Below are positions 4,329 to 20,522 of a stretch of DNA of 61,319 nt, piece by piece. Source of the DNA: Armatimonadia bacterium. Its GTDB lineage: Bacteria; Armatimonadota; Zipacnadia; Zipacnadales; UBA11051. Location of the stretch: the NCBI GenBank assembly GCA_039683575.1, contig JBDKRC010000149.1, forward strand, positions 1-61,319. Reading direction: 5' to 3'. Made by a program: the position numbers and the translations under genes. The stretch's first letter is position 1. Each line of letters begins with the position of its first letter. Under the pieces are notes generated by a model, which was not told the origin of the DNA, ran no database searches, and saw only the letters and a list, made by a program, of their open reading frames with translations.

Positions 4329-7300
4329 TTACTCGCCCTGGATCATGCCAATGATCTCGTCGGCCATCGGATCCCCCAGTTCTTTGGCCTTCCGGGCCTC
4401 CTTGAGCGCCTCATCTTTCCTGCCCTCCATCAGCAGCGCCAAGGCCAGGTAGTGGCGCGGCATTGGGTCGCGCGGGTCTACTCGGATCCCCACCCGGATT
4501 GCCTTCGCCGCCTCCGCGTACTGCGCGTCATCCATGTAGTTTTTGCCGAGACCTACCCACGCCCCCACGTTGTTCGGGTCAAGCTGAAGGGCCTTCGCCC
4601 AGAGGCCTTCGGCTTTCGCGAACTCGCCGATGGCGCCTTGCGCCTGCGCTTCCTCGCTCACCTGGACGGACTGTCGTGAGGCGTCTGCTGAGACAGAGCC
4701 TTTGCCGACCCTGGCAGAGAGCTTGTCGACATCGGCCTTCGGGAAGACGGGGATTAGATCCAGGTCGGTCTGCACCGGCGGCTTCGGCTGGCCCGTAGTA
4801 GAACCAGCCGGCGTTGCGCCCCCAACCGGTGGTTTGTGCGCGGACGGTGGGCGCCCGCCCCCGGTTCCGTCGGTGAGGTTTCCACTCCCCGTCGTCGTGG
4901 GGCGTGAGGGGGCAGTGAAGCGCTCTTCGCAGAAGGCGGCTATGACCGGGGCGACATCGGTAATGCGCGGGCGTGCGGGATTGGCGACCGCCCTCTGGAG
5001 CACCTGAATCAGCTGACTTGGGTCCCCACACTTCGGCTGGGCCACCATGAAGGACATGTGCATGTCATCCATGCTCATGCTGCCATGCTGGCTCGCATAG
5101 TTGCCGCCCGTCGTGTGATAGTACTGTTCGCCTTCCACCCGCTGCTTCGCCGGTGGCGGGTAGTGCGGAAGCACCAGGATGTCCCCGCTGCGCATGCAGC
5201 TCAAGTCATCAAAGCGCTTGGCGAGAAAGGCGATGTCTTCCGGAGTATTCTGCCATCCCAGCCGCACCCCGAAGGCATTGCCGGTCCGCCCCAGATATGA
5301 CTCCGGGTTCTCGAGTTGTGGTACTCCCGAGCCTTGGATCGGGACAACCACCGAATAGCGACCATTCCACCCATCGCGTTCGGTGTTCCGAACAAGCACG
5401 AGGTCGAAGTGGGGGTTGGGACCGATCTCCTTCGGTGGAAACTGAATCAGGTTCGCCTTCGCGATCTGGTTGGCCGTGTCAAGCACCCGTGCAAAGGGTG
5501 GCGGCTCAGCCCACCGCCTGCCGCAATTCGGATCCTCTTTTGCGCTCACGGCATTCACATATACGTGCGCCAGGCCGCCATTCAGGCGCACCACCACGTC
5601 GGACTTGTCGATGTCTTTGTCCTTGTCCCACATCGCGTATTCAGGCCCCAGAAACCACCGCCACTGCTCCCAGCCAATGTCACGAGCGTTCCTCGTGTCC
5701 GTGTGTCCGTGATCGCTCGCGAGCATGAAAATGGTACCGGGATAGTCATCGAAGAAATCCAGCACCGGCTTCAGCAAAGAATCGATACGGTCGCGGTACT
5801 CCGCCAACTGCTTGAGGTAGATGTCCTGGTCCACCTTGTGGCTGTAATGGTCCACGCCCGGCAGGTAGACCCAGATGATGGACGGCCACTGTTCTGCCCG
5901 CACCGGCTTCTCACCCGTTGGGTGCAGTAGCCGGAGTCGCTTCATGAGCTCTTCCTGCGCGTTCCGGTCATACCAGTGCGTGGTCATGGCCGGCAGGAAG
6001 GTAATCTGGTCAATCACGTCCCCCCGTATCCAGTCCTTGTCGGGCACACCCGCCGCGTACTGGTGGAAGATCGACAGCACCGGAAAGAGCATGTTCCGGC
6101 GTCGTATTTCCTCATAGATGGTCGGTGCTGTCAGCAGTTTGCTCGCCAAGCCCTCCTGGTAGACAGCGGACGCATCAGCTGCGAACACCACTCCGCCCTC
6201 TGACCCATCAAGGCCGTAGTTGCGCGCGCTTGAGCGGTCAAAGAAGGCGTTGCCCACGATGCCATGGATGCCTGGCTCCACGCCCGTGACGAATGAGGCC
6301 TGGGCAGGAAAAGTGTAGGACGGGAAGGTGGTGATCGCCTTGTCGAGCAGCACCCCGTTCTGAAACCCCGTCATGGCCAGCCCGCCGCCTGTCCGGTTCC
6401 CCGTGCGCTTGCCCAGCAGCCGCACCAGGTTGGTCGCCGTCCCCACGGGGTCGGTGCCCTCCACCAGGTGCGCCAGCACATCCGCCCGCAATCCATCCAC
6501 ATCCAGCACCACCACCAGCGGGTGTACTGCGAACCTGCCAATGCTCTTGACGCCATCTTTGTCCGTTACAGTGATGTCACGTTCACCCAAAGGCGCGTTC
6601 GCCGCGACCTTCAGATAGCAGTGCAGTCCATACACCCGCCCCAGGGGCCGGCTCGTGTCCGGCTCGTTGATCTGGTCAGCAGAGCGATACTGTTCGATCC
6701 CGGGCCCGAAGTCCGCTCGCCCCTCCCTGATTGGCGAGTCGCCAAGCAGTTCCATCTCGAGCTTTGTTGCGGGCCCGGCCCAATGCGGCTGCGCTTCCAG
6801 CTTCTGGGCCTTCGGCTCACAGATCCCCTTTTCCGCAAACAGGCTGTGGATTTTGGGCGCCATGGCTCTCACTTCGTTCAAAGCCCTCGCCGCGTAGGCG
6901 TCCGACCCACCGAAGCCCGCGCTACCGCCGCCGGCCCGCCAGGTAAGCTTCAGCCAGACGTAACCGCAGCGCCAGGTGGCGGTAGAACCGGAGTCGTAGT
7001 ACGTGTATCCGGCATCGTCCTTCGTCCTCATAAACTCGGCCATGGGACCGTGAGCACCGAGGTTCTTGATCCAGCGGTCAAACTCCGCCTTCTCGGCAGT
7101 GGCGCTGGTGCCTACCTCCACCTGCGTCAGAATGAACTTGGTCTCACCAGCCGCCAGATCCTCTCTGGGACTGTCAGTCCACCAGTCGATGTGGTCGGCG
7201 TGTTGGTAGCGCACGGGCGCTGTGGTCGGCATACCCAGAGTGGCGAGGGCCGCCCGCGCACGTTCGCACACATCCCTGGCCTCGTTCTCGGTTAGATCGG

Positions 7301-7391
7301 CGCGGACGGGGAGACAGCACACCAGGAGCATGATAGGCAGGAGGCACAAGAGCACACTGGGGAAGCGACAGGAGAAGCTGATTTGAGGCAC
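4329..7391 (-). CDS. Secreted nucleotide pyrophosphatase/type I phosphodiesterase (alkaline phosphatase superfamily) with C-terminal TPR
   Basis: Motifs VVLDVDGLR, TFPSYTFP (Thr nucleophile), TG..P..HGIVGN, DHYSH, SDHGH and QHG, then a Pro/Thr linker and TPRs. Likely GTG start at 7391 after GAGGAG with a signal peptide; the track's 7817 start is an artefactual extension. Confidence 0.85.
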   Translation of the reverse strand: MPQISFSCRFPSVLLCLLPIMLLVCCLPVRADLTENEARDVCERARAALATLGMPTTAPVRYQHADHIDWWTDSPREDLAAGETKFILTQVEVGTSATAEKAEFDRWIKNLGAHGPMAEFMRTKDDAGYTYYDSGSTATWRCGYVWLKLTWRAGGGSAGFGGSDAYAARALNEVRAMAPKIHSLFAEKGICEPKAQKLEAQPHWAGPATKLEMELLGDSPIREGRADFGPGIEQYRSADQINEPDTSRPLGRVYGLHCYLKVAANAPLGERDITVTDKDGVKSIGRFAVHPLVVVLDVDGLRADVLAHLVEGTDPVGTATNLVRLLGKRTGNRTGGGLAMTGFQNGVLLDKAITTFPSYTFPAQASFVTGVEPGIHGIVGNAFFDRSSARNYGLDGSEGGVVFAADASAVYQEGLASKLLTAPTIYEEIRRRNMLFPVLSIFHQYAAGVPDKDWIRGDVIDQITFLPAMTTHWYDRNAQEELMKRLRLLHPTGEKPVRAEQWPSIIWVYLPGVDHYSHKVDQDIYLKQLAEYRDRIDSLLKPVLDFFDDYPGTIFMLASDHGHTDTRNARDIGWEQWRWFLGPEYAMWDKDKDIDKSDVVVRLNGGLAHVYVNAVSAKEDPNCGRRWAEPPPFARVLDTANQIAKANLIQFPPKEIGPNPHFDLVLVRNTERDGWNGRYSVVVPIQGSGVPQLENPESYLGRTGNAFGVRLGWQNTPEDIAFLAKRFDDLSCMRSGDILVLPHYPPPAKQRVEGEQYYHTTGGNYASQHGSMSMDDMHMSFMVAQPKCGDPSQLIQVLQRAVANPARPRITDVAPVIAAFCEERFTAPSRPTTTGSGNLTDGTGGGRPPSAHKPPVGGATPAGSTTGQPKPPVQTDLDLIPVFPKADVDKLSARVGKGSVSADASRQSVQVSEEAQAQGAIGEFAKAEGLWAKALQLDPNNVGAWVGLGKNYMDDAQYAEAAKAIRVGIRVDPRDPMPRHYLALALLMEGRKDEALKEARKAKELGDPMADEIIGMIQGE

Positions 7392-7452
7392 GGGCGGCAC
7401 ACTCCTCGGCAGGCAATGGAGCAGCGACTCGGGCTGCGGCTGACTACGTGTT

Positions 7453-7689
7453 TCACCAAGTACAAGTGACGTTTCCAGGGGGATACGAGTTGGGCGAAGC
7501 GAAGCGTGGTCTGACGGTAACGTCACCTCGCGCGGCCACCGCGAAGCGCACAAACGGCTCCAGCGCGTACTGGTACCATTGCAGCGTCGTAGGCGTGGAT
7601 TGGCGCAGACGGCACTCACAGGGGAACTCGGAAACGGCGACCGGAAGGGGGAGCGGAATGGCGCTTTGGGGAGTGAGGGCGAGGGGCAT
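7453..7689 (-). pseudogene. Truncated tyrosine recombinase relic (N-terminal fragment only)
   Basis: LPVAVSEFPCECRLRQSTPTTLQWYQYALEPFVRF aligns by eye with LSPALDDFLADAQLRGLSPKTVEWYRYALGPFLQW (16485-17453) and DDFLQDLSIRQYSPYTINWYRSILSPFVRF (15086-16126). No catalytic domain follows. Confidence 0.8.
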
Positions 7690-7720
7690 TGCAGGCCACT
7701 CCAACGCCCCGAAGGTTCCG

Positions 7721-7736
7721 AACCTTGCGAACCTAA
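7721..7736 (+). promoter_or_regulatory. Accessory att-associated motif, copy 1 (AACCTTGCGAACCTAA)
   Basis: Identical to 7959-7974 and one mismatch to 17487-17502; ends 92 bp left of the att repeat. Confidence 0.65.
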
Positions 7737-7784
7737 CGGCCATTTGGGCCATTGTCGGGAGGGTAACCCAGAAGCCAGAACCAA

Positions 7785-7818
7785 AGAAAATGGCTCTGCA
7801 GAAGTCTGCAGGGCCATT
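7785..7818 (-). terminator. Intrinsic terminator-like hairpin downstream of the tRNA 3' duplicate
   Basis: AATGGCTCTGCAG/CTGCAGGGCCATT stem followed by a T-rich run on the minus strand; similar to the hairpin at 17553-17586. Confidence 0.7.
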
Positions 7819-7827
7819 CAGAGTACT

Positions 7828-7873
7828 TTGGTAGCGCGGAGAGGATTCGAACCTCTGACCTCAAGGTTATGAG
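7828..7873 (-). repeat. att direct repeat (3' half of tRNA-Met, anticodon loop to CCA)
   Basis: 46 bp identical to 17596-17641, extending to 53 bp with one mismatch (7874 g vs 17642 c). Confidence 0.97.
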
Positions 7874-7958
7874 GCTTGCGCACCATCGAAAGGGCAGAAT
7901 GCCGCTAATGGGGCGCTGTGGGGCAGCAAGCGCCTTTGGGCCTGAGAATAATCAGGCA

Positions 7959-7974
7959 AACCTTGCGAACCTAA
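7959..7974 (+). promoter_or_regulatory. Accessory att-associated motif, copy 2 (AACCTTGCGAACCTAA)
   Basis: Starts about 85 bp inside the element's left att repeat; identical to 7721-7736. Confidence 0.65.
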
Positions 7975-8113
7975 TTCTCCGCAAACTGGGGTCTCACCTT
8001 CTTCATCGAATGATAAGGCCAAAGGAGAATAGGCAGGCAAAAGCGAATATCACATCCAGCGACCATCTTCTGCCGTGGTAATCGCGTCCGTGGCACCGAG
8101 GGGGAATGAGCGT

Positions 8114-8587
8114 ATGCCCTCGAAAGCAAAGCTGGGGATACCGCTGCCGTTAGGTTGTCCCTGCGTCTGGTTTCCCCTTCTTCTCATCACTGTCTTCGTC
8201 GTCGTTGGGATACACTCGCTTCTCTCCCCGTATTCCCGTAAGGCCGAGCGCTGCGCTCGTGATTACCTGGAGTATCTGCAACACCCGAATGAGCCGCGCC
8301 GGGATGTTGCTATCAGCGCCGTTGACAAAGCGGGGCGGAACCATTGGAAGGTACGTGGGACAGACTGCCCTGGCCTTCCCCAATACATGGAATGGCGGGA
8401 CTACCTTGAGGCCAAGCGTGTACTGACCAAGGAGTTCACCATTGAGGTCTATCGTATCCCACAAGGGCAATCTTTCTACGTGCGAGACTCTTCTCGGCGA
8501 GGCCACCACCGCGAACGCGGACCTGCCTGGATGGTTTCTTTCCCTTCCCAACGGGGTCCAGTTTGTAAGGATCAGGTCTTCCAGTAA
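8114..8587 (+). CDS. Hypothetical membrane-anchored protein (element cargo)
   Basis: ORF with one N-terminal hydrophobic helix; ATG at 8114 follows GAGGGG. No recognisable family. Confidence 0.55.
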   Translation: MPSKAKLGIPLPLGCPCVWFPLLLITVFVVVGIHSLLSPYSRKAERCARDYLEYLQHPNEPRRDVAISAVDKAGRNHWKVRGTDCPGLPQYMEWRDYLEAKRVLTKEFTIEVYRIPQGQSFYVRDSSRRGHHRERGPAWMVSFPSQRGPVCKDQVFQ

Positions 8588-8639
8588 CAGCAAGCCCCTT
8601 GAACTCGCTCACGGCACGGACAGCGGACACAGCAAGCGA

Positions 8640-9323
8640 TTACTCGACATCCCCAAGTCGCAGCGGCTCTTGTGGCATCCAATCGGGATGAGACCTGATC
8701 ACCCAATCTGCTTCATACTGCTTAAAGCGACGAAAGACGGCGATCCCAGGACGAGCGCGTACAGTCTCGCCCCAAATGGTGAAGCTGTAATCACCGGGAG
8801 CGAGTTCCACAGTTAAAGTCTCGAAGGGGGGTATGGATACGGTTCGAGAGACAGGGCCAACGAACGCGACCGTCACGGTCTCAGGTGAGGAGTTGGTCAT
8901 AACGATCTTGGGTTGTTCCTGGGCAATAGGGGTCTCGACAAAAGGCGACTTCTCGGGCAGTGGCGCGACGGGCATAGGCGGAGGCGTTTGTGAGACCAGC
9001 GGAGGACCCTCTGGAAGTGGCGGGACCGCCCAACGAACTGGGGCGTCTGGCGACTTTTGGGCGAGAGGGGCAGATGGCTCCATGCCCTCCGGTTGCGATG
9101 CAGACTGTGGGGGTAAAGAGACAATAAGACTCTTGGTGATTTGGTCAACCTGATCTGGCTTCGGTGCCTGCGGTGGCTGCCTGAACCCCACAAGCGGCGC
9201 GATTGGTCGCCGCACACCAGCAAGATGGCAGTACGTGAACCCCAAAGCATTGGCGGAAACCACCAGTACCAACAAGCCGATCACAGCACGACGATCATTC
9301 ACGCCATTTCCTAAAGGTGCCAT
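8640..9323 (-). CDS. Hypothetical membrane-anchored protein with Pro-rich linker and C-terminal beta-sandwich-like domain
   Basis: TM helix, Pro-rich stretch, then IVMTNSSPETVTV...TVELAPGDYSFTI. Start uncertain (9323 after GAGAGG, or 9356). Confidence 0.7.
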   Translation of the reverse strand: MAPLGNGVNDRRAVIGLLVLVVSANALGFTYCHLAGVRRPIAPLVGFRQPPQAPKPDQVDQITKSLIVSLPPQSASQPEGMEPSAPLAQKSPDAPVRWAVPPLPEGPPLVSQTPPPMPVAPLPEKSPFVETPIAQEQPKIVMTNSSPETVTVAFVGPVSRTVSIPPFETLTVELAPGDYSFTIWGETVRARPGIAVFRRFKQYEADWVIRSHPDWMPQEPLRLGDVE

Positions 9324-9460
9324 ACTGAAACCTCTCGCCTGGCCCTTGGTTGGCATAGTGCTTCCACGCAGTCTCCCTTTTTCAGGCACGAAACACCGGA
9401 CCACGTTCAGTGCCAAGTCTCAGCGGCTCATCCGGGCATCCAACTCGGACGAGACGTGAT

Positions 9461-10789
9461 TCAGGGCTGACTCAACACCCTACGGGCATTGTTCGTGTGA
9501 GCTGAAGCAGACGTCCAGGCCGCTTGCACTATCTCAATAATCAGCAGTTCATAGCTGTACCCGGCGTTGTTAAACGGATTGGGCATAGCGCGAGCCTTAC
9601 TCTTTAGCCAAGGATAGCGGCCAACGGCGCGAGACACCTCCGTAGCATCCCATGAAATCGAGTATTGGACATGGTCAGAGGACCTGAATTCCCACGACCA
9701 CGCCTCCTGTGCAAACACGTAATCATCAAGTGCAGCGCTTGCTTCAGACCAGAAGGTTGTGCCTCCGAATTGGGTTGCATTGGCTGATCGGTCGAATTTC
9801 TGCTTCGCCGGGATAACGTAATCGGCGTATTTGGCATAGCTAATGCCAACATCACACGCTGCGGAAATGTCGTTCAGCGCGTTAAGGGCCTCCTCGCGCT
9901 GGTAGGTATCCTGAACCATTCGGGTACTGGTAGCGGTGCGGCTGGGTTCACTGCTTGCCGAGGATGGACCGTTGGCACTACTCGAACGGGCAGACTGCGG
10001 AGGTGCGGTGGCCTGTTGCGCATCCCGCGCGGGGTTTCCTGATTTAGCTCTTCTTCGGGCGGGAGGTGGTGCCTGCCCTGGTGTTTGCTGTGGCGCAGAA
10101 GACGCTTCTTCGCGAGCGTTGGGCGTCGCGTGGGGACGATGTCCCCGACGTCCGACCATGAGCCCGAACGTCGCGCCGAAGACCAGAACCAATGCCAGCG
10201 CTGCCCCAAGTGCCCACATAGGAATGCCGAGAAAGCCTGATCCATGCCTGATCTCTGTGTTGGGGGTGAAGTGTTCTCTTAGGCAGGTTCCGCACAATCC
10301 CTCGTTCTCGTCGGAAACTACTATAGGTATCTTGCGACGACACTGGCGACAGTAGACTGGAGTGTCGGATTCCGGCGCAGGCTCTGCCGCAGGGAACTGC
10401 TGCACAGCAGGGACTTGCTCCGCTTCCGGGCCGGTCTCCTTTTGCAGTTTGGCAATTTCGACTTGCGCTCTTGTGTAAGTTGGATCAAGCCGCAGTGCAC
10501 GTCGCTGCGCTTCCCCCGCCTCCTTCGGCGACCCCATCTTGCGAAGAATCGTTCCAAGGTTACACCATGCCAAAGCAGATTGGGGTCGCAGACGAGTAAC
10601 CTGCGTGGCGGCCATCCGTGCTGGCAGCCAGTGGCGAAGGTCAAAATGAACTTTCGCAAGCAGTTCCCACGCTGCCGCATCCTCGGGATGGTCATTCGTC
10701 CAAGCGACCATCTGCCGAATTGCTTCCGCTGGTTTCCCCGCGTCTACAAGAGCATTGGCTTCCTGAAGCACATTCTGGGTGTTTGACAC
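9461..10789 (-). CDS. TPR + Zn-ribbon (CRQC...CGTC) + single-TM protein with external helical domain
   Basis: N-terminal TPRs (AWCNLGTILRKMG), a CxxC pair, a TM helix and a low-complexity linker. GTG start follows GGGGAG. Confidence 0.8.
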   Translation of the reverse strand: MSNTQNVLQEANALVDAGKPAEAIRQMVAWTNDHPEDAAAWELLAKVHFDLRHWLPARMAATQVTRLRPQSALAWCNLGTILRKMGSPKEAGEAQRRALRLDPTYTRAQVEIAKLQKETGPEAEQVPAVQQFPAAEPAPESDTPVYCRQCRRKIPIVVSDENEGLCGTCLREHFTPNTEIRHGSGFLGIPMWALGAALALVLVFGATFGLMVGRRGHRPHATPNAREEASSAPQQTPGQAPPPARRRAKSGNPARDAQQATAPPQSARSSSANGPSSASSEPSRTATSTRMVQDTYQREEALNALNDISAACDVGISYAKYADYVIPAKQKFDRSANATQFGGTTFWSEASAALDDYVFAQEAWSWEFRSSDHVQYSISWDATEVSRAVGRYPWLKSKARAMPNPFNNAGYSYELLIIEIVQAAWTSASAHTNNARRVLSQP

Positions 10790-10880
10790 GATCCATCACT
10801 CCCCCTGTCCTGCGGATTCGATAGTAGGCGGATATATCCGTCTCGCCTTTGTCGGGAACTGAGGTTCTGCTTCGCGGCCT

Positions 10881-11426
10881 TCAATATCCAGGATAGCCCG
10901 CCTTGTCCATCAGCGTTCCGAAGGCTTCCACGCAAGACTGCGCCAACTTTGGAAAAGTGGTTCGGGCCTCGTCAACGTTGCCGCCGCTGAAACGGATTTG
11001 ACCTGTCGTCTGCGTAGCGCCGGCCTGCAGGTTGTATGCCCAGCAGTTAGTCATCTCCCGCGTTGCCATCCATACATAGAACGTAGGCATTCCTACCATA
11101 AGGGAGTTTTTAGTGGTTGCTGGGGCACAGAACAGCTTCCATGCCTGCAGTTCGATGCCATACCAAGCCTGGGTCTGAGTAGCGATAGCAGTATAACCTT
11201 CCGCTGTGCCTGCTTTGCCTTCACCGATGATGGTCTGCATAATGGGAATTCCAGCCTCGAATTGTGGCTTCACATATTCACTGACGAAGCTGTCTAGCGG
11301 TGCCCTAATGCTGGCCGCTTCGCGCTCAGCCTTGGCCTCAAAACCTGGGGTGGGGACGTAGACCTGAGCAAACAAGCAGTGCTGTACGGCACAGAGCACA
11401 TATGCCAGCAGTAGAGTCCTTTTCAT
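10881..11426 (-). CDS. Hypothetical secreted protein
   Basis: MKRTLLLAYVLCAVQHCLFA signal-like N-terminus after a GGGAGGA RBS; the track's longer start is unlikely. Confidence 0.7.
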   Translation of the reverse strand: MKRTLLLAYVLCAVQHCLFAQVYVPTPGFEAKAEREAASIRAPLDSFVSEYVKPQFEAGIPIMQTIIGEGKAGTAEGYTAIATQTQAWYGIELQAWKLFCAPATTKNSLMVGMPTFYVWMATREMTNCWAYNLQAGATQTTGQIRFSGGNVDEARTTFPKLAQSCVEAFGTLMDKAGYPGY

Positions 11427-11769
11427 AATCAATTCCTCCCGCTTCCGAGTGTTGCGCCTCATACACGGCAGACTCCCCCATCCAATAGAGACCGAGGCCG
11501 ACCTATGCCGGGAACATCTGGAAGGCAACGGGGGCGCTCTTCCCCCGATGATGGTTGTTTTTCGCCGTGTATCTCGGCATTCCCTCTTTTGCTCGCATTG
11601 GTTGCTGACAGAGAACCCAGAAACCTCTGAGTCGTCCCCGATGGTTCTTACACTTCTTTGCCTCTCCAAATGACACTCAACCCCCCGGTCCCCTTTCGTC
11701 ATGTCTCCCGAGACGGCGAATACGCCCACCGGGGCAGTTGACGGCAGGCCGCCCCCAACTAACGATAAA

Positions 11770-11814
11770 AGTGCTAAAGCACTGTTGACAAACACTGCCC
11801 GTATCTGCTATGAT
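11770..11814 (+). promoter_or_regulatory. Sigma70 promoter of the serine recombinase with an adjacent palindrome
   Basis: TTGACA (11785-11790), 18 bp spacer, extended -10 TGcTATGAT (TATGAT at 11809-11814). AGTGCT-AA-AGCACT at 11770-11783. Confidence 0.75.
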
Positions 11815-11847
11815 GGGAGACACTGAAATGAGAGGTTGGAGACCACT

Positions 11848-12669
11848 ATGAAGCGCGCTGCCGGGTATCTAAGGGTCAGTACCGCGACGCAGGCTGAGCA
11901 TGGCCTGGGCCTGGACATTCAGCGAGAGGCCATTACCGAATACTGCCAACAACAGGGCTTTGTACTGGTGGACTGCTACGAGGACGCGGGCGTTAGCGGC
12001 GCTAATGGTATTGAGGACCGGGAGGCATGGCCGCAACTGGTGGACGCCTTGGAGCAGAAGGCATTCTCCGTCGTCATTGTGCTGCGCCTGGACCGTCTGG
12101 CGCGTGATCTTATGCTGCAGGAGACGATGCTGGGGAACGTGCAGGAGCTAGGCGGGGAACTGATCTCGATAGACGAGCCTGACCTCTGCGACGGAGACCC
12201 TACCAGAACGATGTTCCGCCAGATCAAGGGGGCCATTTCTCAATACGAGAAGGTCATGATCGTTACGCGCCTGAAGGCAGGGCGGCGCAAGAAGGTCCGG
12301 CAGGGCGGCTATTCTGGGGGATGGTTGCCGTATGGCTACAGTGCTGAAGGCCAGGGGCCTGACGCGAAGCCGGTAGTGGACGGGGCTGCTGCCGCGATTG
12401 TGAGGCGGATATTTGCAGATTACGCGAAGGGCAATAAGAGCATGAAGCAGATCGCCCTGGAGCTAACTGCCGCCGAGGTACCGACTGCCCGAGGCGGACA
12501 GTGGGCGCAAGCGACCGTGCAGGCAATCTTGTCTAACCCCTTCTATACGGGACAGGTGGACGAAGAGGGCCGGGTTCCCAGAAAAGGATATGAGGCGGTT
12601 GTCACTAAGCGCCTCTTCAATAGATGTCAGCGGAGGATGGAAGAGGCGCGGCGGGGGCCATCCAAGTGA
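11848..12669 (+). CDS. Serine recombinase (resolvase catalytic domain + Recombinase DNA-binding domain; no Zn-ribbon/coiled-coil tail)
   Basis: Motifs GYLRVST, YEDAGVSG, RLDRLAR, GGWLPYGY, IVRRIF, GGQW..ATVQAILSNPFYTG. Confidence 0.93.
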   Translation: MKRAAGYLRVSTATQAEHGLGLDIQREAITEYCQQQGFVLVDCYEDAGVSGANGIEDREAWPQLVDALEQKAFSVVIVLRLDRLARDLMLQETMLGNVQELGGELISIDEPDLCDGDPTRTMFRQIKGAISQYEKVMIVTRLKAGRRKKVRQGGYSGGWLPYGYSAEGQGPDAKPVVDGAAAAIVRRIFADYAKGNKSMKQIALELTAAEVPTARGGQWAQATVQAILSNPFYTGQVDEEGRVPRKGYEAVVTKRLFNRCQRRMEEARRGPSK

Positions 12670-12999
12670 TTTTCATTCGGGAATCGAGCGCCGTTGGCGC
12701 GTCTCCGTCCGCGCAGGTTAGGATTTCACCAGTTATTCAGGGCTTTCGGCGCACGAGTGTTATCCTGAGAATGACGCACAATACTGTCGGACGCAGTCTG
12801 ACCCCATAGCTTTTCAGGCCCGGCATTACTATCAGTTGTAGTAGTATGGTCTCAGCTTACAGGTTACCGCCCCAATACGCGGGGGGCTTAGCTGGTAGGC
12901 CAAACTCCCTTTCCTGCTCATCCTGACGCACTAGGAAGCACATCTATTGATCTTCCAGGACTGAGGCGAGCGTCACCTTTACAAAGTGCACAAGTTGCC

Positions 13000-14076
13000 T
13001 CAGTTGGCTTTCTGTAGTGTGGATGGACGCGAAGAGCGTCGAATTCCTCCAGCACTGTCTTCAGACACAGTACGCAGGTGTCTGCACATGGTAAACTGGT
13101 TAATATTCTTGTGTGCAGACTGTAACGCCTCTACGGCTGAGGCAATTCTCGCCAAGGGATAGCTTTCTGCCAGTTTTATCGCGACCGGCGTCTTGATCCC
13201 GAAGGCAAATAGCAGACGGAACGCTTCTTCCTCCTCAGGGGTCAGCCCCTCGACGGTAGTTTTCGTTCGCTCGCGGCCCGTTGCCGTCTGCCGTATGTAC
13301 TCGACAGTAAAAGCAGAAGGACCCCACTGATCGGGGGACCCTTCGGTACTGGCTATCTTCGTCTCGTGGCCGTTCGTCGTCTGTCGTGAGGAAGCAGAAA
13401 GAGAAGAATCAGAAGAACAATTTTGCAGGCGAGACTGCTCTCTATCTTCTTTCTTTATCTCTTTCTCATCTAACGTCTCTCTCGGCTGCCAACCGGGTGG
13501 ACTGAGGCGACTTCTGGGCAGCATGCCTTGATGCGCTCCGACTGCCGCACGGCACTGAGATTCAGGGGGTCTTGCGGCGTCACTGCCTAACCCAGCGGGA
13601 GAGCCACAGGCAACCATAGAGATATTGCCGGGTTGCTCAGTCTGATACTCCTGTTGCTCGCTCTTTGCCTCAGGTTGCCCATTAGAGGCCTGCGGTTGCT
13701 CAGACTGGCGTTGGTATCTTGTGCCATCATTCCACTTACGGAAACCGACGACGCGGTAGTAGATGCTGCCACGAATTTCGACTCGTTCAATGAACCCTGT
13801 GCTGGTAAGGGATTTGAAGGCCTTGCAGATAGTGGTCTTGCTCCAGCCCGTTATTTCTCCTATCTGCTTCTGTGTCATAGGTCCCTGCCCCGCGTTACGG
13901 AGACAGCCTAGATAGCGCTCGCTTGTGGGGCGTTCGTCTCTCCAGGCGAGCAGTAGGCAGTTATCTAGGAGAACCCGGTCACGAAGGGAGAGCGCTTTCA
14001 CTGCCGGGTCAAACAGCATTGGTACTGGCATTCTGAAGTAGGGTGTGCGTTTTGGCTCGTTCGTACTATGGTCCAT
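13000..14076 (-). CDS. Phage/plasmid-type wHTH replication initiator-like protein
   Basis: HTH (MTQKQIGEITGWSKTTICKAFKSLTSTGFIE), central heptad repeats and a KEIKKE tract, an architecture typical of lambda O/DnaD-like initiators. Confidence 0.65.
   Translation of the reverse strand: MDHSTNEPKRTPYFRMPVPMLFDPAVKALSLRDRVLLDNCLLLAWRDERPTSERYLGCLRNAGQGPMTQKQIGEITGWSKTTICKAFKSLTSTGFIERVEIRGSIYYRVVGFRKWNDGTRYQRQSEQPQASNGQPEAKSEQQEYQTEQPGNISMVACGSPAGLGSDAARPPESQCRAAVGAHQGMLPRSRLSPPGWQPRETLDEKEIKKEDREQSRLQNCSSDSSLSASSRQTTNGHETKIASTEGSPDQWGPSAFTVEYIRQTATGRERTKTTVEGLTPEEEEAFRLLFAFGIKTPVAIKLAESYPLARIASAVEALQSAHKNINQFTMCRHLRTVSEDSAGGIRRSSRPSTLQKAN
13631..13707. repeat. Four iteron-like repeats at exact 21-bp spacing inside the rep-like gene
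   Basis: GTTGCY starts at 13632, 13653, 13674 and 13695; the outer copies are GGTTGCTCAGTCTG and GGTTGCTCAGACTG. Confidence 0.65.
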
Positions 14077-14365
14077 ATTCGTTCATCTCTTTTTGCGAGT
14101 CATCCAAAGTGATCCCCTCCGATGAGGGGTGGTCTAGCAGTGCGACGGAGACTGAAGTGTTCAGAGGTACCTTGGTGGGGCGCGGCTGAGGGAATGAAGG
14201 GGAGTTCTCTTGAGGCATCTGCGGGACGCGATTCTCCTGAGCGGAGACTCTTGATAGCTCCAAGTGCGCGGCATAGGTGGGGAAGCGGGAGACGATGGTG
14301 GTCGAGGAGAGGCTTCGCCGTGCGGCGAAAGCGCGGCAGGAAAGTACGCGGCAACAGAGACCCAC

Positions 14366-14394
14366 TTGCGCTCGCCTGCGGCCTGCAGTAGTAT
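14366..14394 (+). promoter_or_regulatory. Candidate antisense sigma70 promoter
   Basis: TTGCGC-N17-TAGTAT, followed by the perfect 14-bp palindrome TGTTGTGCACAACA (14396-14409). Confidence 0.5.
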
Positions 14395-14400
14395 GTGTTG

Positions 14401-14467
14401 TGCACAACAACTGTTCTTCAGTTGTAGGCCCCCGGTCTGTTGCCGCAGGTCGGGGGTCGTTCTTTCT
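14401..14467 (+). ncRNA. Candidate ~65-nt countertranscript (antisense RNA) to the rep leader
   Basis: Promoter upstream, a 7-bp hairpin (14407-14425), a 13-bp hairpin with 3 G-U pairs (14427-14458), then GTTCTTTCT. Confidence 0.45.
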
Positions 14468-14547
14468 GGGGGCGGATCAGTCAATATTCGGCCTCCCGAA
14501 ATCGCCGTCAGCTAGATGCCTGGTCCAGAGAATGGCATAGTGGACTA

Positions 14548-14964
14548 TCACTGCCAGTCACCATCCGGGAAGCTTGGCATATGGCCGAATAGCCCTTTCT
14601 CACGTTCATGCCATTCGCCGCGTTCAGTGAGACCGGCATCCACTATTCGTTCGACATCGTACAGCATCAGCGCCATCCCGGTGTTCAGGTGTCGCTGAAA
14701 GGCAACCTCGGGAGGTTCCAGGCCATCGTGCAGATCGTTCACAATGCGCCGGATGTCTGACGGCCATAGCTCCTTGTGCTCGTAGTCGTCGCTGCCCCAA
14801 CTTTCCTCCCAGTAGTTCCCCTCAATGTGCCGTTTCCATCCCTCGCCATCGTGTTCATCGCAGCATGGCTCCCACCGCCGACCGGCAACTTCAATGTTGC
14901 AGTCTTCGTCAATGATCGTCACGCCTCTATACTCGTACGGCAACTCAATTCTCTTCCTGAACAT
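14548..14964 (-). CDS. Hypothetical acidic, Trp-rich protein
   Basis: ATG at 14964 after a strong GGGAGGTG RBS; co-oriented with the integrases and rep. Confidence 0.65.
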   Translation of the reverse strand: MFRKRIELPYEYRGVTIIDEDCNIEVAGRRWEPCCDEHDGEGWKRHIEGNYWEESWGSDDYEHKELWPSDIRRIVNDLHDGLEPPEVAFQRHLNTGMALMLYDVERIVDAGLTERGEWHEREKGLFGHMPSFPDGDWQ

Positions 14965-15085
14965 CGCCAACACCTCCCTATTGTGTCGCCAGTGCGGTTG
15001 GTGCCAATCATGACGCACCGCAAGGCTTCAGACCTACGTATAGTCTCCATATCGAGCGGCGCGAAGTCAATGGCCCTGGCACACT

Positions 15086-16126
15086 CTAGCTGCACTTCCA
15101 TTCTGGAATCATCTTCATACGCCGCTGCCTGCTCAGCGGTAGGTCCATCGTGTGAAGAGGGCTGAGTTCCCTTTGGCGACTTATGGCATCCTCGTCGGCG
15201 ACCTCGCAGTATCGGCGCGTCATTTCGAGGGAGCTATGACCGAGAATGCGCTGGAGGTAGAAGGCGTCGCCGCCACTACGGATGAAGTTCACGGCATGTG
15301 TGTGTCGTAGGGTGTGCGGTGATACTCGGACGCCGCTTATTCCCGCCTTATCGCCGTACGCTCGCATCCTCACCTGAAACGCTTTCGGCGTCAGCTTCCC
15401 GCCGATGTCATTGGGGAACAGCCAGGGCGAGCCTCCCATGCCAATCCCCTCCAGTGCCTTCGCTCGATTCTGACGATATGCTTCAAGCTCATTCAGCATC
15501 CGACTGGATATGCCAACAACGCGCTCTTTGTTGCCCTTCCCCAGTGCCTTGACCGTCGCCTGTCCGAGGTCGAGGTCGGGTAGCTGCAGACTGAGTGTCT
15601 CAGACAGTCGCAGACCTGTATCGAGAAGCAGCATCATGAAGCAGAAGTCGCGGAGACCAACAAAGAGGTGAATTGGCGGCTGATCGAGGAGAGCCTTGAT
15701 CTGCGTCGAGGTGAGGGTGGCAATGATCTTGCGGCCCTCGCGAGCTTTCGCCACATGCTCCCACGGGTTCGCGGTTGCGTAGTCGTGCTCCAAGAGCCAC
15801 CGCCAGAAGAGGTGCAGGCCGTCGCGGTAGTCATTCTGGCGCTTCGCGCCAAGTGGCCCACGACCACTTGCGCCGTGTAGGCTGATGTCGGCTATGAAAC
15901 CTCGGGCGAGCACTTCGTCAACGCGTGAAGGCAAACACTTGCTGCCATCGTCACCCAGAAAGCGGACAAACGGCGACAGGATACTTCTATACCAGTTGAT
16001 CGTATACGGGCTGTACTGACGTATTGAAAGGTCCTGCAGGAAATCGTCAGAGGCTTCAGTCCATCCCGGCCATCCCGCAGAATTGGCGGTGACGAGTCTT
16101 AGGCGAGTGCTGGGGCTGTTGTGCAT
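15086..16126 (-). CDS. Tyrosine recombinase/integrase, paralog B (XerC/D-like size)
   Basis: LDTGLRLSE, GKGNKER, HTLRH, LGHSSLEMTRRY: complete R-K-HxxR-H-Y catalytic set. Confidence 0.95.
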   Translation of the reverse strand: MHNSPSTRLRLVTANSAGWPGWTEASDDFLQDLSIRQYSPYTINWYRSILSPFVRFLGDDGSKCLPSRVDEVLARGFIADISLHGASGRGPLGAKRQNDYRDGLHLFWRWLLEHDYATANPWEHVAKAREGRKIIATLTSTQIKALLDQPPIHLFVGLRDFCFMMLLLDTGLRLSETLSLQLPDLDLGQATVKALGKGNKERVVGISSRMLNELEAYRQNRAKALEGIGMGGSPWLFPNDIGGKLTPKAFQVRMRAYGDKAGISGVRVSPHTLRHTHAVNFIRSGGDAFYLQRILGHSSLEMTRRYCEVADEDAISRQRELSPLHTMDLPLSRQRRMKMIPEWKCS

Positions 16127-16417
16127 GGTCGTCCGCACCCCTTTTCGAGGGGGAAGCTTCGCAGGTGGATGACGTATTCAACAGGCACGGAGCGCTGAAA
16201 GTAGCGCTGGCAGACCTGGAGGCGAGAAGCGTCAGGCAAATTACCAGCACCACAAGCAGACCCCAGAGGGGGCGTCTCCAAGCCCAAATTGAATGTTCGA
16301 TCATAACACTTGTCCACGAGACTTCAGTTTTCTGTGACAGTACCATTAGGTTTACTATAGTGAAGCGGACGACAAGACATACACATATCGCACTATTAGG
16401 TAGCAAGGCTGCAAACC

Positions 16418-16446
16418 AGCGTATTGCTCGTGCCACGGGAAGTCAA
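16418..16446 (-). promoter_or_regulatory. Candidate sigma70 promoter for paralog B and downstream genes
   Basis: Minus strand TTGACT-N17-TACGCT in the AT-rich spacer between the two recombinases. Confidence 0.4.
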
Positions 16447-16484
16447 TAGCGTAGGGATGATTCCGGCCCGACCACAAAGTTTTG

Positions 16485-17453
16485 TCAACGGAGCCGCCCG
16501 CCGTCCGTCAAGTTGACGCTTCCTGCCGCCAGAGGACTGAGTTCCCTTTGCTTTGTCAGGAAGTCCACGTCTGCGAGTTCGCAGTACCGACGTGACATAT
16601 CGAGGCTCGTGTGTCCGAGAATCTTCTGCAGGTGGAAAGGGGACCCGCCGTTGCGAACGAAGTACAGGGCGAAGGTATGCCTGAAGGTATGGGGACTGAC
16701 ACGGACGCGCCTGATCTGCGCCTGTTGTGCGTACAGTTTCAGCCGCATCTGCAGAGCCTTGGCGGTACACTTGCCTGCCACATTGCTGGGAAAGAGCCAC
16801 TGGCAGTTGCCGTAGCCGTTCTGCCCGAGTACCTGTCGCCGAGATTGAAGGTATTTACGCAGATGTCTTTCCAGGACAGGTGAGAAGCCCGCGACGCGCT
16901 CCCGGTTGCCTTTGCCCATGACCCGCAGGGTTCCGCGAGTCAGGTCAAGGTCATCCAGAGTCAGCGAAAGTGCCTCGCTGAGACGGACTCCCGTGTCCAA
17001 GAGCAGCAGCATGAACAAATGGTCCCTCTGCCCGAGGAGTGTTCGGCGATCCGGCTTAGACAATAGGGCCTGCAGTTCTTCTTCAGTGAAGGTGGGAACA
17101 AGCTTCCGGGGCTCCCGTATCTTGCCAATTCCTGCGGTGGGGTTCGCGGTAAGGTCGCCAGTGCGCACCAGCCACTGGCAGAAGCGGTCAATGGCTTCGC
17201 GGTAGTGGTTCAGCCTGCGCGCCCCAACGCCGTCACGAGACGCGAGGAACTGACGAATGGTAGCTTCCTTCAGGTCATCTGCTGAATGGCAGTCTCGCTC
17301 ATTCAGCCATTGCAGAAAGGGTCCCAAAGCGTAGCGGTACCATTCGACGGTCTTGGGGCTGAGGCCCCGCAGTTGGGCATCGGCGAGAAAGTCATCAAGG
17401 GCGGGGGAGAGACTGGCGGAGGGGGTGATTTCGCATCGCAACAGGTGGGACAT
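16485..17453 (-). CDS. Tyrosine recombinase/integrase, paralog A (tRNA-proximal)
   Basis: LDTGVRLSE, GKGNRER, HTFRH, LGHTSLDMSRRY; ATG at 17453 after GGGAGG. Confidence 0.95.
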   Translation of the reverse strand: MSHLLRCEITPSASLSPALDDFLADAQLRGLSPKTVEWYRYALGPFLQWLNERDCHSADDLKEATIRQFLASRDGVGARRLNHYREAIDRFCQWLVRTGDLTANPTAGIGKIREPRKLVPTFTEEELQALLSKPDRRTLLGQRDHLFMLLLLDTGVRLSEALSLTLDDLDLTRGTLRVMGKGNRERVAGFSPVLERHLRKYLQSRRQVLGQNGYGNCQWLFPSNVAGKCTAKALQMRLKLYAQQAQIRRVRVSPHTFRHTFALYFVRNGGSPFHLQKILGHTSLDMSRRYCELADVDFLTKQRELSPLAAGSVNLTDGGRLR

Positions 17454-17486
17454 AATCGGTGCCTCCCGAATCACCAAAACCCGACG

Positions 17487-17502
17487 AACCTTGCGAAGCT
17501 AA
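17487..17502 (+). promoter_or_regulatory. Accessory att-associated motif, copy 3 (AACCTTGCGAAGCTAA)
   Basis: Ends 94 bp from the att repeat and lies just upstream of the integrase A RBS. Confidence 0.65.
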
Positions 17503-17552
17503 TCGCAGTTTTCAGGGGCTGGTGACTGTTCAGCACTTGCCGCCCACAAACG

Positions 17553-17586
17553 AAAAATGGCCCCAGAGAGCATCCTGGGGCCATTT
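17553..17586 (-). terminator. Intrinsic terminator after the tRNA, supplied by the element
   Basis: 12-bp stem AAATGGCCCCAG/CTGGGGCCATTT ending in a T-run on the minus strand. Confidence 0.8.
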
Positions 17587-17596
17587 CGGGTAAACT

Positions 17597-17673
17597 TGGT
17601 AGCGCGGAGAGGATTCGAACCTCTGACCTCAAGGTTATGAGCCTTGCGAGCTACCGGGCTGCTCCACCGCGCG
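17597..17673 (-). tRNA. tRNA-Met(CAT), initiator type
   Basis: CGCGCGGTGGAGCAGCCCGGTAGCTCGCAAGGCTCATAACCTTGAGGTCAGAGGTTCGAATCCTCTCCGCGCTACCA: cloverleaf, CAT anticodon, unpaired 1:72 and encoded CCA. Confidence 0.97.
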
Positions 17674-17680
17674 TTACCTG

Positions 17681-17712
17681 ATTATATTACCAAAATCTGT
17701 CACATAATGCAA
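17681..17712 (-). promoter_or_regulatory. tRNA promoter
   Basis: Minus strand TTGCAT...TAATATAAT, with TATAAT ending 7 nt before the tRNA. Confidence 0.65.
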
Positions 17713-17795
17713 CCCCTGTCGCTCACTTTCTCGCCATTGGGTCATAGTGGAACCAACCTGGCAGGGCATCTGTCATCCATAGAGAAATGTGTACA

Positions 17796-20522
17796 ATGCC
17801 CCGCCCGCTGCTCATCCTGTTGTGCCTTGTCTTCCCGCTCTGCGCTCTGGCGCAGCCGCGCGGCGTGAGCCGGATTGTCACCTATACATCCCCTCTGGAC
17901 AACTCCCCCCAGTCATATGGCGTATATCTGCCCGCCGCGCCCGCCCCTTCTGCAGCCGGATATCCCGCCGTGTTCCATGCGCATGGCTATGGCTGGTCAG
18001 TCAGCTCCGGCTTCTCGCAGTTTCAGAAGGATACCGCCGAGCGGTACGGCTGGGTACTGATCAATCTCAACGCCCGCGGGCCGCAGTTCTATGAGGGCGT
18101 GGGGGATGTCGAGACGCGCAACGTGCTTCGCGATGCCCACCGGCGCTTCGGGCTCGATCTTGCGCGGATCTTCATCACCGGAGGCTCGATGGGTGGCACC
18201 GGTGCCTTCCGGCATGTCATCCGATACCCGGACATGTTTGCGGCTGCGGTTGGGGTGGATGGCTGGTCAGACTACGTGGAATGGCATTATCACTGGTACG
18301 CCCGGACCGACCAGCAGAATGACATCGAGGAGGTCCGCCGGCCGCTGCTGGAGGCCTGCTCGCCACTGTACTGGGCTGGACGGGCCCGCTGGGCGCGCGT
18401 ACAGGCTTCGGTCAGCGGGCGCGATACCGTAGTCGGGCCACGCAATGGTCTCGATTTGTATGGCGCCTTGCTGGAGCGCTCGAGCAATCTACCCGGCGCC
18501 TATGACAACCGCTTGTTCGTTGATGACAATGCCGGGCATGGCGGCAGCACCCGGCTGGACCAGATCTACAACTACTTCGCCAACTACACCGGAGTCGAGC
18601 ACCCGCAGAGCTTTCTGTGCGAGACACCCATCCTGACCCACGGCAACATGTACTGGGGAAGCATGCTGCGGCAGAAGGTCCAGGGGGCGTTTTCGTCGCT
18701 GGAATCGGACGTCCAGCCGGCCAAGGATGACGCCAACGGCAAAGTCGTGACCGTGCTGACAAAGAACCTGTCAGAGTTCGCCCTGCACCTGCAAGCCTCC
18801 CCGGCCGCTGAGGCCAAGCAGGTTAGTGTGTACGTGGACGGTTTCCCTGCGTATGAGGGGCCGCCGACCGCTATCACACTGCGCGCTGACTGGTCGCCCG
18901 AGGGTGCCATGTGGGGCTGGCGTGTGGCTGAGGCGAATGGTCTGCGGAAATCCCCAGAGTTGGAAGGACCAATCGGGGAAGCGTTCAAGGTGCCCTTTAC
19001 GGTGGTGTATGGGACCGCCGGGGCACGCGCCGAGGCTGAGCAGAATCGGCGGGAGGCCCTGGACTTCGTCCACGGCTGGAATGCCTTCATGGTGCACGCT
19101 GAGGCTCTCGTGGCGGTGCCGGAGGAGAGGGTGAGCGACGTGGACGTGAAGACACGCTCGCTTGTGATCTTCGGTACCGAGGCCAGCAGCAAGCTACTAC
19201 GGGAAGCACAGGCACGCAGCGCGCTGCCGGTGCGGGTACAGTCTGGACGCGTGCTGGTGTCAGACCCACAGTGGGGCGATCGGGAGTACCTTGGCGATCA
19301 GTTTGGCGCGTTCTTGTGCTATCCCAACCCCCTGAGTGACTTCAGTACTTACCTGGTGGTGTTGCACGGGCAATGGGCGACGAAGGCCGATGGGACGGGC
19401 CGGCAGGGACTCGAGTATGACTTGGAGAAGCTCCCGTGGGCCTACCCCGACTATGTTGTGTTCAACATGGATCAGGCTCAGCTTCCACACGTGCTGAATG
19501 TGAACAACAAGCCGCCGGTCACGTGCTATGAGGCGGGGTATTTCGTCGAGAGCGGGTACTTCAGCCAGGACTGGCGGCCGTATCGGGCCGCGACGCTTGA
19601 CCGCATGCGAGCCATGAAGCTGCCTGTGAAGCGGCTGCATGTCGCGACGGTGACGTATGACCCCGGTAGTCATCGGGCGGCGGTGCAGGTCGTGGACGAG
19701 GCTAACCAACCTTTCGCTCGTGCCCGGGTGACGGCTCGCGCGGTGGACGGCCAGGCGAGGGTGACTTCTGCTCTCACCGACCAGCAGGGCTTCGCAACCT
19801 TCGCCGGCGGGGCGGAGGAAGCCAGCGTTGTCAACGTGGACGCCACTGGCGCGGTCTATGACTGGACCGCAGACTGGTGCACGTCGACCTCGGGAGCGGG
19901 CGTGGGGGTACGGGCCTTGGCCAAGGCGCCGGGTGAGGTGGCGCCGGGGCAGGTCACTGTCGAGGTGGCCGCGCCATTCGTTGCGCCCGCTACGGTCTCA
20001 GTTCAGTTCCCAGCGGGCACGGTCACTCCGGCGCAGCAGGATGTGCGGCTACTCCCAAACGTGGCGACTAAGGTAGCCTTTACCTGGGAAGCAGCCGGGC
20101 TTCCAGCCGGGGCCTATCCGGGGCTGGTGACCGTGCGGCTGCCAGACCAGGCTCTGGCACTAACGCGGCCGATTTGGCTGGAGTTGGGGAAGTGGCAGGA
20201 AAGCCCGCTGCGCCTTGTCGAACTCAAAGCCGCCGACCTGGTAGCGGGCGGGCGCTATGAAGTCACGGCGCGCCTGCTGAATACCTCGAGCAGCCCCTGC
20301 ACGGTGCCTGTGTCTTGCGCCCTACTGGAGGGGCGGCGGTATCTTCCGGCGCAGTCATTGACGGTACCGGCCGGGCAGGAGGCGACGGTGTCCTTCCGCC
20401 AGCCTTCCGGTGATCCCCCGTTGGCCCATGGGCCGCAGACGGTGCGGGTAAGCGTTCCGGGGCACTGCGGGGTTACTTCGAGTTGCGAGTTCATGGTGAA
20501 AGCAGTTAACAGTTCGCAGTGA
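17796..20522 (+). CDS. Secreted alpha/beta-hydrolase (esterase/S9 peptidase-like) with C-terminal Ig-like domains
   Basis: Signal peptide, YPAVFHAHG, GGSMGG nucleophile elbow and GHG motif. Confidence 0.8.
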   Translation: MPRPLLILLCLVFPLCALAQPRGVSRIVTYTSPLDNSPQSYGVYLPAAPAPSAAGYPAVFHAHGYGWSVSSGFSQFQKDTAERYGWVLINLNARGPQFYEGVGDVETRNVLRDAHRRFGLDLARIFITGGSMGGTGAFRHVIRYPDMFAAAVGVDGWSDYVEWHYHWYARTDQQNDIEEVRRPLLEACSPLYWAGRARWARVQASVSGRDTVVGPRNGLDLYGALLERSSNLPGAYDNRLFVDDNAGHGGSTRLDQIYNYFANYTGVEHPQSFLCETPILTHGNMYWGSMLRQKVQGAFSSLESDVQPAKDDANGKVVTVLTKNLSEFALHLQASPAAEAKQVSVYVDGFPAYEGPPTAITLRADWSPEGAMWGWRVAEANGLRKSPELEGPIGEAFKVPFTVVYGTAGARAEAEQNRREALDFVHGWNAFMVHAEALVAVPEERVSDVDVKTRSLVIFGTEASSKLLREAQARSALPVRVQSGRVLVSDPQWGDREYLGDQFGAFLCYPNPLSDFSTYLVVLHGQWATKADGTGRQGLEYDLEKLPWAYPDYVVFNMDQAQLPHVLNVNNKPPVTCYEAGYFVESGYFSQDWRPYRAATLDRMRAMKLPVKRLHVATVTYDPGSHRAAVQVVDEANQPFARARVTARAVDGQARVTSALTDQQGFATFAGGAEEASVVNVDATGAVYDWTADWCTSTSGAGVGVRALAKAPGEVAPGQVTVEVAAPFVAPATVSVQFPAGTVTPAQQDVRLLPNVATKVAFTWEAAGLPAGAYPGLVTVRLPDQALALTRPIWLELGKWQESPLRLVELKAADLVAGGRYEVTARLLNTSSSPCTVPVSCALLEGRRYLPAQSLTVPAGQEATVSFRQPSGDPPLAHGPQTVRVSVPGHCGVTSSCEFMVKAVNSSQ

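Follow-up and report, generated by a model that had tools for sequence, protein, structure and literature searches.

What is the function of a short sequence that recurs beside the attachment (att) sites of a tRNA-targeting island, when the island's integrases have no domain for binding such outlying sites? The question is raised by a stretch of 61,319 nucleotides (nt) from an Armatimonadia bacterium (uncultured, of wastewater-type samples; contig JBDKRC010000149.1; the window), in which the 16-bp motif AACCTTGCGAASCTAA has exact matches at 7721-7736, 7959-7974 and 17487-17502, each on the + strand, just as an initial annotation of this DNA had listed them. On comparative evidence we favour, with a probability of about 0.6, the reading that the copies are recombinase-bound, core-like accessory (arm) sites of attP in islands that target tRNA genes with Xer-like enzymes. 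The copy on the integrase side probably doubles as an operator of int, as judged from its position.

The three copies flank the ends of an intact island, one of them at its junction with the remains of an older one. The features concerned are the following.

17597..17673, - strand: tRNA-Met(CAT), the integration target, an Rfam hit.
17596..17648: right copy of the att repeat, within the intact tRNA-Met; anticodon loop at 17635-17641.
7828..7880: left copy of the att repeat, a displaced tRNA-Met 3' fragment; loop copy at 7867-7873.
7874..17634 (approximate): intact island of 9.7 kb, with a serine recombinase, a TPR protein, a winged-helix protein and unnamed open reading frames (ORFs) as cargo.
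17487..17502: motif on the integrase-side (P) arm of the intact island; distances 132 nt to the loop and, upstream of int1, 33 nt to its ATG.
7959..7974: motif on the other (P') arm of the intact island; distance to the anticodon-loop copy 85 nt.
7721..7736: P-arm motif of the older, decayed island; distances 130 nt to the loop copy and, upstream of the integrase remnant, 31 nt to its ATG.
16485..17477, - strand: int1 (P0002), a Xer-like two-domain tyrosine recombinase; likely ATG at 17453, giving 322 amino acids (aa).
15086..16138, - strand: int2 (P0003), a two-domain paralogue about 45-47% identical to int1.
7453..7689, - strand: N-terminal integrase remnant of the older island, 79 codons from the ATG at 7689.
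17554..17587, - strand: island-borne intrinsic terminator hairpin between the tRNA 3' end and the motif.
7788..7819, - strand: equivalent hairpin of the decayed island, recognized by eye and not called by the terminator scan.

The 53-nt att repeat (7828-7880 = 17596-17648, apart from a single mismatch at 7874) corresponds to the 3' part of tRNA-Met(CAT) and occurs only twice in the window. The locus has the make-up of a tRNA-targeting integrative island, with a tRNA 3' repeat at both ends and int1 beside the intact tRNA. The mismatch at 7874 directly follows the loop copy and marks the start of element sequence; the anticodon loop at 17635-17641 is likely the overlap region. From the intact tRNA inward, the order is intrinsic terminator, motif and int1, the start of which lies 143 nt from the tRNA 3' end; its ATG at 17453 is preceded by GGGAGG. 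Since hairpin, motif (7721) and integrase start recur in the same order on the left of the displaced tRNA fragment, two islands inserted in succession meet at 7721-7974. This junction resembles an attP: P-arm motif, hairpin, tRNA 3' half with the core, and P'-arm motif. The remnant to its left matches int1 at 35% identity over 51 aa (E 6e-8) and int2 at 44% over 32 aa. In the circular form of the intact island the P and P' copies would be direct repeats, in the same orientation on either side of the loop. Low-depth contigs from four public runs over 6900-18400 include none that joins across the island, and no circular junction was seen in them.

Measured to the edges of the att repeats, the gaps are 91, 78 and 93 nt for the copies at 7721, 7959 and 17487. 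The initial annotation had placed the motif 85-94 bp from an att repeat, which fits 91 and 93 nt and fails for 78 nt, and about 90 bp from every att junction, of which the window offers just the two repeats. It had also put two copies 35-50 bp upstream of int start codons; the location is right, the gap is 31-33 nt, and one of the two genes is the 79-codon remnant.

The motif is confined to these sites. Even with two mismatches allowed, the window holds no match beyond the three; 0.01 are expected in shuffled sequence and three or more were reached in 0 of 100 shuffles. A weight matrix built from 16 instances (threshold 12 bits) likewise matches the three sites alone in the window, with scores of 31.6-33.3. 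Across the whole genome (6,231,525 bases in 352 contigs) there are three exact matches, identical with those of the window, so that the proposed genome-wide count, which expected the motif at att junctions only, came out as anticipated. Six matches appear at up to two mismatches (three extra), against two for a reversed-pattern control. Sub-words of 11-14 nt, such as TTGCGAASCTAA, are restricted to the three sites, save for one coincidental 14-mer on contig C20. A chance origin of the copies is rejected on the shuffles and on this genome-wide uniqueness.

The sequence of the motif is that of the core. The tRNA reads TTATGAG|CCTTGCGAGCTACC on the + strand of the window, and compared with it the motif is the tRNA half-site CCTTGCGA-GCTA plus one inserted base; the likeness to a tRNA half-site described earlier is therefore real, with a 1-nt insertion. 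The general form is CCTTGCGA-N-SCTA, represented in the window by CCTTGCGA-A-GCTA and CCTTGCGA-A-CCTA and in the relative G002 by CCTTGCGA-G-GCTA. Only one half-site is copied, that on the tRNA 5' side of the anticodon loop, and the 8-mer TCGCAAGG is the same in the tRNA-Met core and in the Met-type arm. The internal 9-bp repeat reported in the motif, CGAACCTTG/CGAACCTAA, is present at 7719-7736.

Relatives were scanned in one genome per species (53 loci), in metagenomes (80 loci) and in 401 genomes of the phylum. Close int1 homologues (47-63% identity) fall into two groups, one beside tRNA-Met and one beside tRNA-Leu fragments. With up to two mismatches the motif is present in 8/8 integrase-side arms of the tRNA-Met type, in answer to the call for a test of conservation in homologous elements. 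The eight arms are the two of the window and those of L009, L010, L103, L105, L106 and L124, from five sources besides the window; L010 is on the same contig as L111, and L103 is paired with L096 as one entry. The integrases that accompany the motif are 48-57% identical. When the eight arms are aligned, the motif outranks every other 16-column window in conservation, with a majority fraction of 0.97 versus 0.67 elsewhere, and pairwise identity is 0.94 within it versus 0.52 in the flanks. The second conserved block is the terminator hairpin, which shows compensatory changes.

Spacing is conserved as well. In 12/12 instances, which represent four spacer lineages only 52-67% alike, 84-85 nt separate the P' copy from the loop. 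The P copy lies 120-145 nt from the loop, at 130-132 nt in five of the eight tRNA-adjoining arms and at 145 nt in the integrase-less modules measured (four instances, see below), and it is 29-33 nt from the int ATG in seven of the eight arms. In G001 and G002 the core TTATGAGCCTTGCG (one mismatch or fewer) stands at the expected distance from each motif copy examined, in all seven regions. Counting the pattern loosely over the phylum is uninformative, since the 32/401 genomes with a match at up to one mismatch are set against a reversed-pattern control about as frequent (untallied); among 29 phylum loci examined, an att/integrase context was found in L096 alone. Neither of the two exact phylum matches, L075 and L084, has an integrase homologue in its locus or a copy of the tRNA-Met loop within 140 nt.

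Several observations accompany these loci. The islands supply a terminator for the tRNA-Met that they rebuild (window 17554-17587, L009, L010, L103, L105, L106, L124), and its stem is preserved through compensatory changes such as GGCCCCAG/CTGGGGCC, GGCTCTGG/CCAGAGCC and GGTCCCGG/CCGGGACC. At L009 9381-9863 the intact tRNA-Met is separated from a second, partial tRNA copy by a 94-codon ORF for a GIY-YIG nuclease (Pfam E 4.8e-14); the ORF has its stop codon inside the copied anticodon loop, and in the partial copy the strand 3' of that loop is swapped for another hairpin. The integrase-less modules are those of G002, on C62 (L097 10028-10295), C337 (L099), C290 (L187), C317 (L188) and C332 (L186), and are laid out as P motif, hairpin, about 45 nt of non-T-arm sequence, core, 84 nt and P' motif. 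No integrase was found in the contig stretches searched; the flanking ORFs on C62 and C337 are glycosidase-type in appearance, and G002 has two close int1 homologues only.

Int1 and Int2 have no arm-binding domain and are two-domain (core-binding plus catalytic) enzymes, as the initial annotation had suspected. Pfam finds only the SAM-like core-binding and the catalytic domains, the former starting at residue 19-25 of the 322-aa P0002; with only about 20 residues ahead of it there is no arm-binding domain, and the separate N-terminal domain of about 60 residues that marks lambda-type enzymes is missing. The NCBIfam profiles XerC, XerD and XerA align end to end from about residue 28 of the ORF, well under their cutoffs. 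P0002 scores 170.4 bits against a cutoff of 335 for the XerC equivalog and 166.3 against 330 for XerD, and P0003 is similar, so neither is a housekeeping XerC or XerD; against the integron-integrase model TIGR02249 P0002 reaches 74.7 of the 265 bits required. In all orthologues about 20 residues, a common tail, precede the first conserved helix. Their lengths are 322-323 aa in five tRNA-Met-type orthologues and in L008, and 343-375 aa, with longer C-termini, in three tRNA-Leu-type genes. In a structure model of Int1 (predicted local distance difference test score, pLDDT, 84.6) residues 1-13 are disordered and the chain is all-helical from residue 15 onward. XerD is the best solved relative by sequence; the top folds in Foldseek are XerD, the Brujita integrase (5vfz, second) and XerA, and lambda Int is aligned from residue 75 only.

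Most relatives carry an int1-int2 pair, convergent in eight (L010, L103, L104, L105, L107, L109, L011, L124) and tandem in the window, while int1 is single in L009. The pairing suggests a two-enzyme recombinase of the XerC/XerD kind. Because the two core half-sites differ (TCGCAAGG versus CCTCAAGG), we speculate by analogy with XerC/XerD that one paralogue might read the arm-like half-site and the other its partner.

Beyond what the initial annotation had noted, relatives inserted at other tRNAs have arm repeats that mimic their own cores. Four unique close relatives (47-55% identity) without the motif are at tRNA-Leu 3' fragments (caa, cag twice, gag), verified against each genome's own tRNAs. 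Their arms contain repeats in which the 8-mer adjoining the loop follows the element's own core.

L109: core ACACTAGG; arms TCACTAGG and TCGCTAGG.
L107: core TCACTAGG; arm TCGCTAGG.
L008: core CCACTAGA; arms TCGCTAGA, twice.
L011: core TCACTAGC; arm TCACTAGC.

The four bases that precede the loop are AAGG, TAGG, TAGA or TAGC according to target class (n = 4) and are matched in the arm words. The Leu(cag) arm word TCGCTAGGTTCG and the Met arm word TCGCAAGGTTCG are one base apart, and it is the same base that separates the two cores. The arm-repeat positions +66 and +99/100 are kept in L109 and L011. No second att copy was found for the tRNA-Leu-type elements in the DNA examined. In a further locus of tRNA-Leu(caa) type, L007 1-400, the arm word of the Leu(cag) type, CCCTCGCTAGG, is copied 151 nt away on the T-arm side of the loop; here two related elements are joined in tandem and both arms bear a mark.

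More distant relatives (33-39% identity, mostly labelled Dehalococcoidia) yielded 28 arms from 62 integrase-tRNA pairs, the nearest tRNA being taken and copies on the same contig dropped. In 23 of the 28 arms the longest exact word in common with the 29-nt anticodon region is longer than that in common with the rest of the tRNA, and nine have 13-14 nt in common with the anticodon region. Here, too, the Met-type motif is absent and the arm word varies with the tRNA: GAGCGCTTGCTTC at Val, GAGTGCTTGCTTC at Gly-ccc and GTGCCTGCTTC at Gly-tcc. As a side observation, the half-site copy in the arms is followed by a near-constant TTCG/TTC (TTCG for Met, TTCG/TTCC for Leu(cag), TTCGTC in the Dehalococcoidia-labelled arms), at the place where the true core has the anticodon loop.

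A half-site copy, held at fixed distances and kept in relatives, is most likely an additional binding place for an integrase that has no arm-binding domain. The position, orientation, uniqueness, conservation, spacing and core likeness of the motif, and the way the arm words follow the target in relatives, are observed; the identity of the binder and the effect of binding, be it on synapsis or directionality or on autoregulation, are inferred. The interpretation as core-like accessory sites that accompanied the first description of the motif is supported by the comparative evidence. In the mechanism we propose, each motif copy would be an extra, non-exchanging copy of a core half-site, and extra protomers (Int1, perhaps with Int2) would bind it with the DNA-binding surfaces that they also use on the core. 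The arms, of 85 and about 130 nt, would fold back, and the protomers would shape an attP complex distinct from those on attB, attL and attR. Such a complex could provide selectivity or directionality, for which lambda-type enzymes rely on a separate arm-binding domain. Occupancy of the P copy would probably also repress int1, a role proposed because this copy sits between the tRNA terminator and the int1 start codon.

Several results weigh against this proposal. The fixed gap of about 30 nt to the int ATG would suit a pure expression signal equally well. The family is rare, the motif occurring in an att/integrase context in 3/401 phylum genomes, and P' copies come from three genomes only, one of which is the 9.9-Mb G002, whose copies may be strain variants. 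The at least five P-core-P' modules of G002 with no integrase nearby are unexplained by the model; possible identities are miniature elements that move in trans, relics and strain variants. Among the relatives at other tRNAs, L017, L013 and L145 are exceptions to the tracking of the target, and close kinship makes many rows of the distant set non-independent. Finally, when the best 10-mer match of each arm to its own core was compared with 200 shuffles, the result was not significant for the individual elements (7-200 of the 200 shuffles were as good) and cross-class scores were similar; the tracking therefore rests on the reading of conserved or repeated arm words and not on a formal statistic.

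A rival view is that the motif is nothing but an expression signal of int1, whether a promoter element, an operator for a protein other than the integrase or an element of the 5' untranslated region, with the P' copy playing the like part for a cargo gene or being a leftover. The P copy does lie between the tRNA terminator and the ATG, it keeps its 29-33 nt in seven of the eight arms, and the half-site copy of distant relatives adjoins or overlaps the start of int. A scan for sigma-70-like promoters found none overlapping any of the three copies, however, and tRNA is the sole Rfam match; folding the three copies as RNA gave no common structure (z-scores -1.0 to -2.0). Moreover, the 84-85 nt of the P' copy are fixed to the core and not to any gene, both copies are retained in modules that have no integrase, and the motif varies with the tRNA target, as would not be expected of a promoter. 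We consider a signal of this kind unlikely.

The binder might instead be another protein, either an excisionase-like factor encoded by the element or a host protein that bends DNA. Lambda-type systems use factors of both sorts in their arms, and the island has small unnamed ORFs. Yet the cargo of the window island has no homologues in the related elements examined, among which the integrases are the only proteins in common, and the motif is a copy of the core half-site. A host factor is made improbable by G002, a single genome that holds both tRNA-Met-type and tRNA-Leu-type elements with different arm words. Overall, binding by such a protein is quite unlikely. Very improbable is the idea that the copies are non-functional scars, fragments of att or tRNA sequence left by repeated integration at the same tRNA. 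Tandem integration has certainly taken place here (the remnant island left of 7828) and the motif is tRNA-like, but scars would decay, whereas pairwise identity stands at 94% within flanks at 52%; all variants have the constant 1-nt insertion relative to the tRNA, just one half-site is copied, and the spacing to the loop is fixed.

Taken as recombinase-bound arm sites, the motif copies can be set beside known systems, the sources for which are cited from partial texts. [quoted passage not shown] As far as that excerpt goes, the principle is the same, namely core-like accessory sites read by the same enzyme (binding being shown for TnpI and predicted here), and the present family has both a two-domain recombinase and accessory motifs with the core recognition sequence. 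It does not have the two tandem motifs on one side of a 116-bp resolution site that the excerpt describes; instead it has a site on either side of the core, at 84-85 and 120-145 nt from the loop, in an integrative, tRNA-targeting attP, usually with paired Xer-like enzymes. In the integron site attI1, supplementary direct repeats DR1 and DR2 beside the core are bound by IntI1 and, in the portion of the source available, are dispensable for one reaction, favour another and are proposed to be topological filters (PMC8946536). Accessory direct repeats beside a core are common to both, integrase-binding there according to that portion and predicted to be so here; the attI1 repeats differ in being one-sided and in having a folded single-stranded attC as the partner.

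Lambda Int has a separate N-terminal domain for binding its arm sites, the sequences of which are not homologous to those of the core, according to the extracts of PMC9791396 and PMC8138268. The present attP is like that of lambda-type systems in being two-armed and about 250 bp long with accessory sites on both arms (the 7721/7959 junction and 17487 in the window; the G002 modules) and none expected on attB. It is unlike them in that the arm-binding domain is absent and the arm sites, far from being unrelated to the core, copy it. The Brujita integrase, the second-best fold and a member of the IntBrujita subgroup of simple tyrosine recombinases, is also a mobile-element enzyme made up of core-binding and catalytic domains only; a partial text of PMC8138268 has it as the characterized simple phage integrase, described as arm-less, whereas the present family has conserved arm elements at fixed spacing. 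XerCD at cer and psi is closest in sequence and fold and is likewise a paralogous recombinase pair with accessory DNA beside the core. In the abridged account (bioRxiv 10.64898/2026.02.23.706985) that DNA is the binding place of separate proteins, PepA, ArgR and ArcA; P0002 and P0003 differ further in falling well under the XerC/XerD equivalog cutoffs and in belonging to tRNA-gene islands. A literature search, with subscription papers outside its scope, found no account of the present family or of core-like arm sites of Xer-like tRNA integrases.

Elsewhere in the islands, the serine recombinase of the cargo (11836-12669, + strand) has Resolvase N-terminal and Recombinase domains and is a second, unrelated site-specific recombinase. 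A contig from one public wastewater run is near-identical to the int2-int1 region and has 482 other letters in place of 14470-15102, a cargo variant adjoining int2. To the left of the junction, the 1162-codon frame at 4329-7817 (- strand) is an artefact, its first ~150 codons being low-complexity read-through across the integrase remnant; the real gene within it encodes a type I phosphodiesterase and TPR protein with a signal-like start further in.

A survey of tyrosine recombinases suggests, in the part cited, that elements with simple enzymes may stand for a stage that came earlier and was less regulated (PMC8138268). Should the enzymes of the island bind the motif, there would be a second route to a complex, asymmetric attP, in which the core-recognition surface is reused on phased arm sites. 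Tentatively, and with the odds somewhat against it, this could extend to a whole Xer-like clade, mostly with Int1/Int2 pairs and reaching from Armatimonadota into Chloroflexota, that would have a two-armed, lambda-like attP without an arm-binding domain by means of phased core half-site copies on both arms, rewritten at each switch of tRNA target; the integrase-less G002 modules would then be miniature elements mobilized in trans. The relatives at tRNA-Met, Leu, Val and Gly amount to natural swaps of specificity in which core and arm words change together, and for that reason the rules of recognition and the part of accessory sites in directionality should be directly testable with a small two-domain enzyme. 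The finding is of moderate to high interest for the field of site-specific recombination, and compact two-domain systems of this kind could serve as tools for genome engineering.

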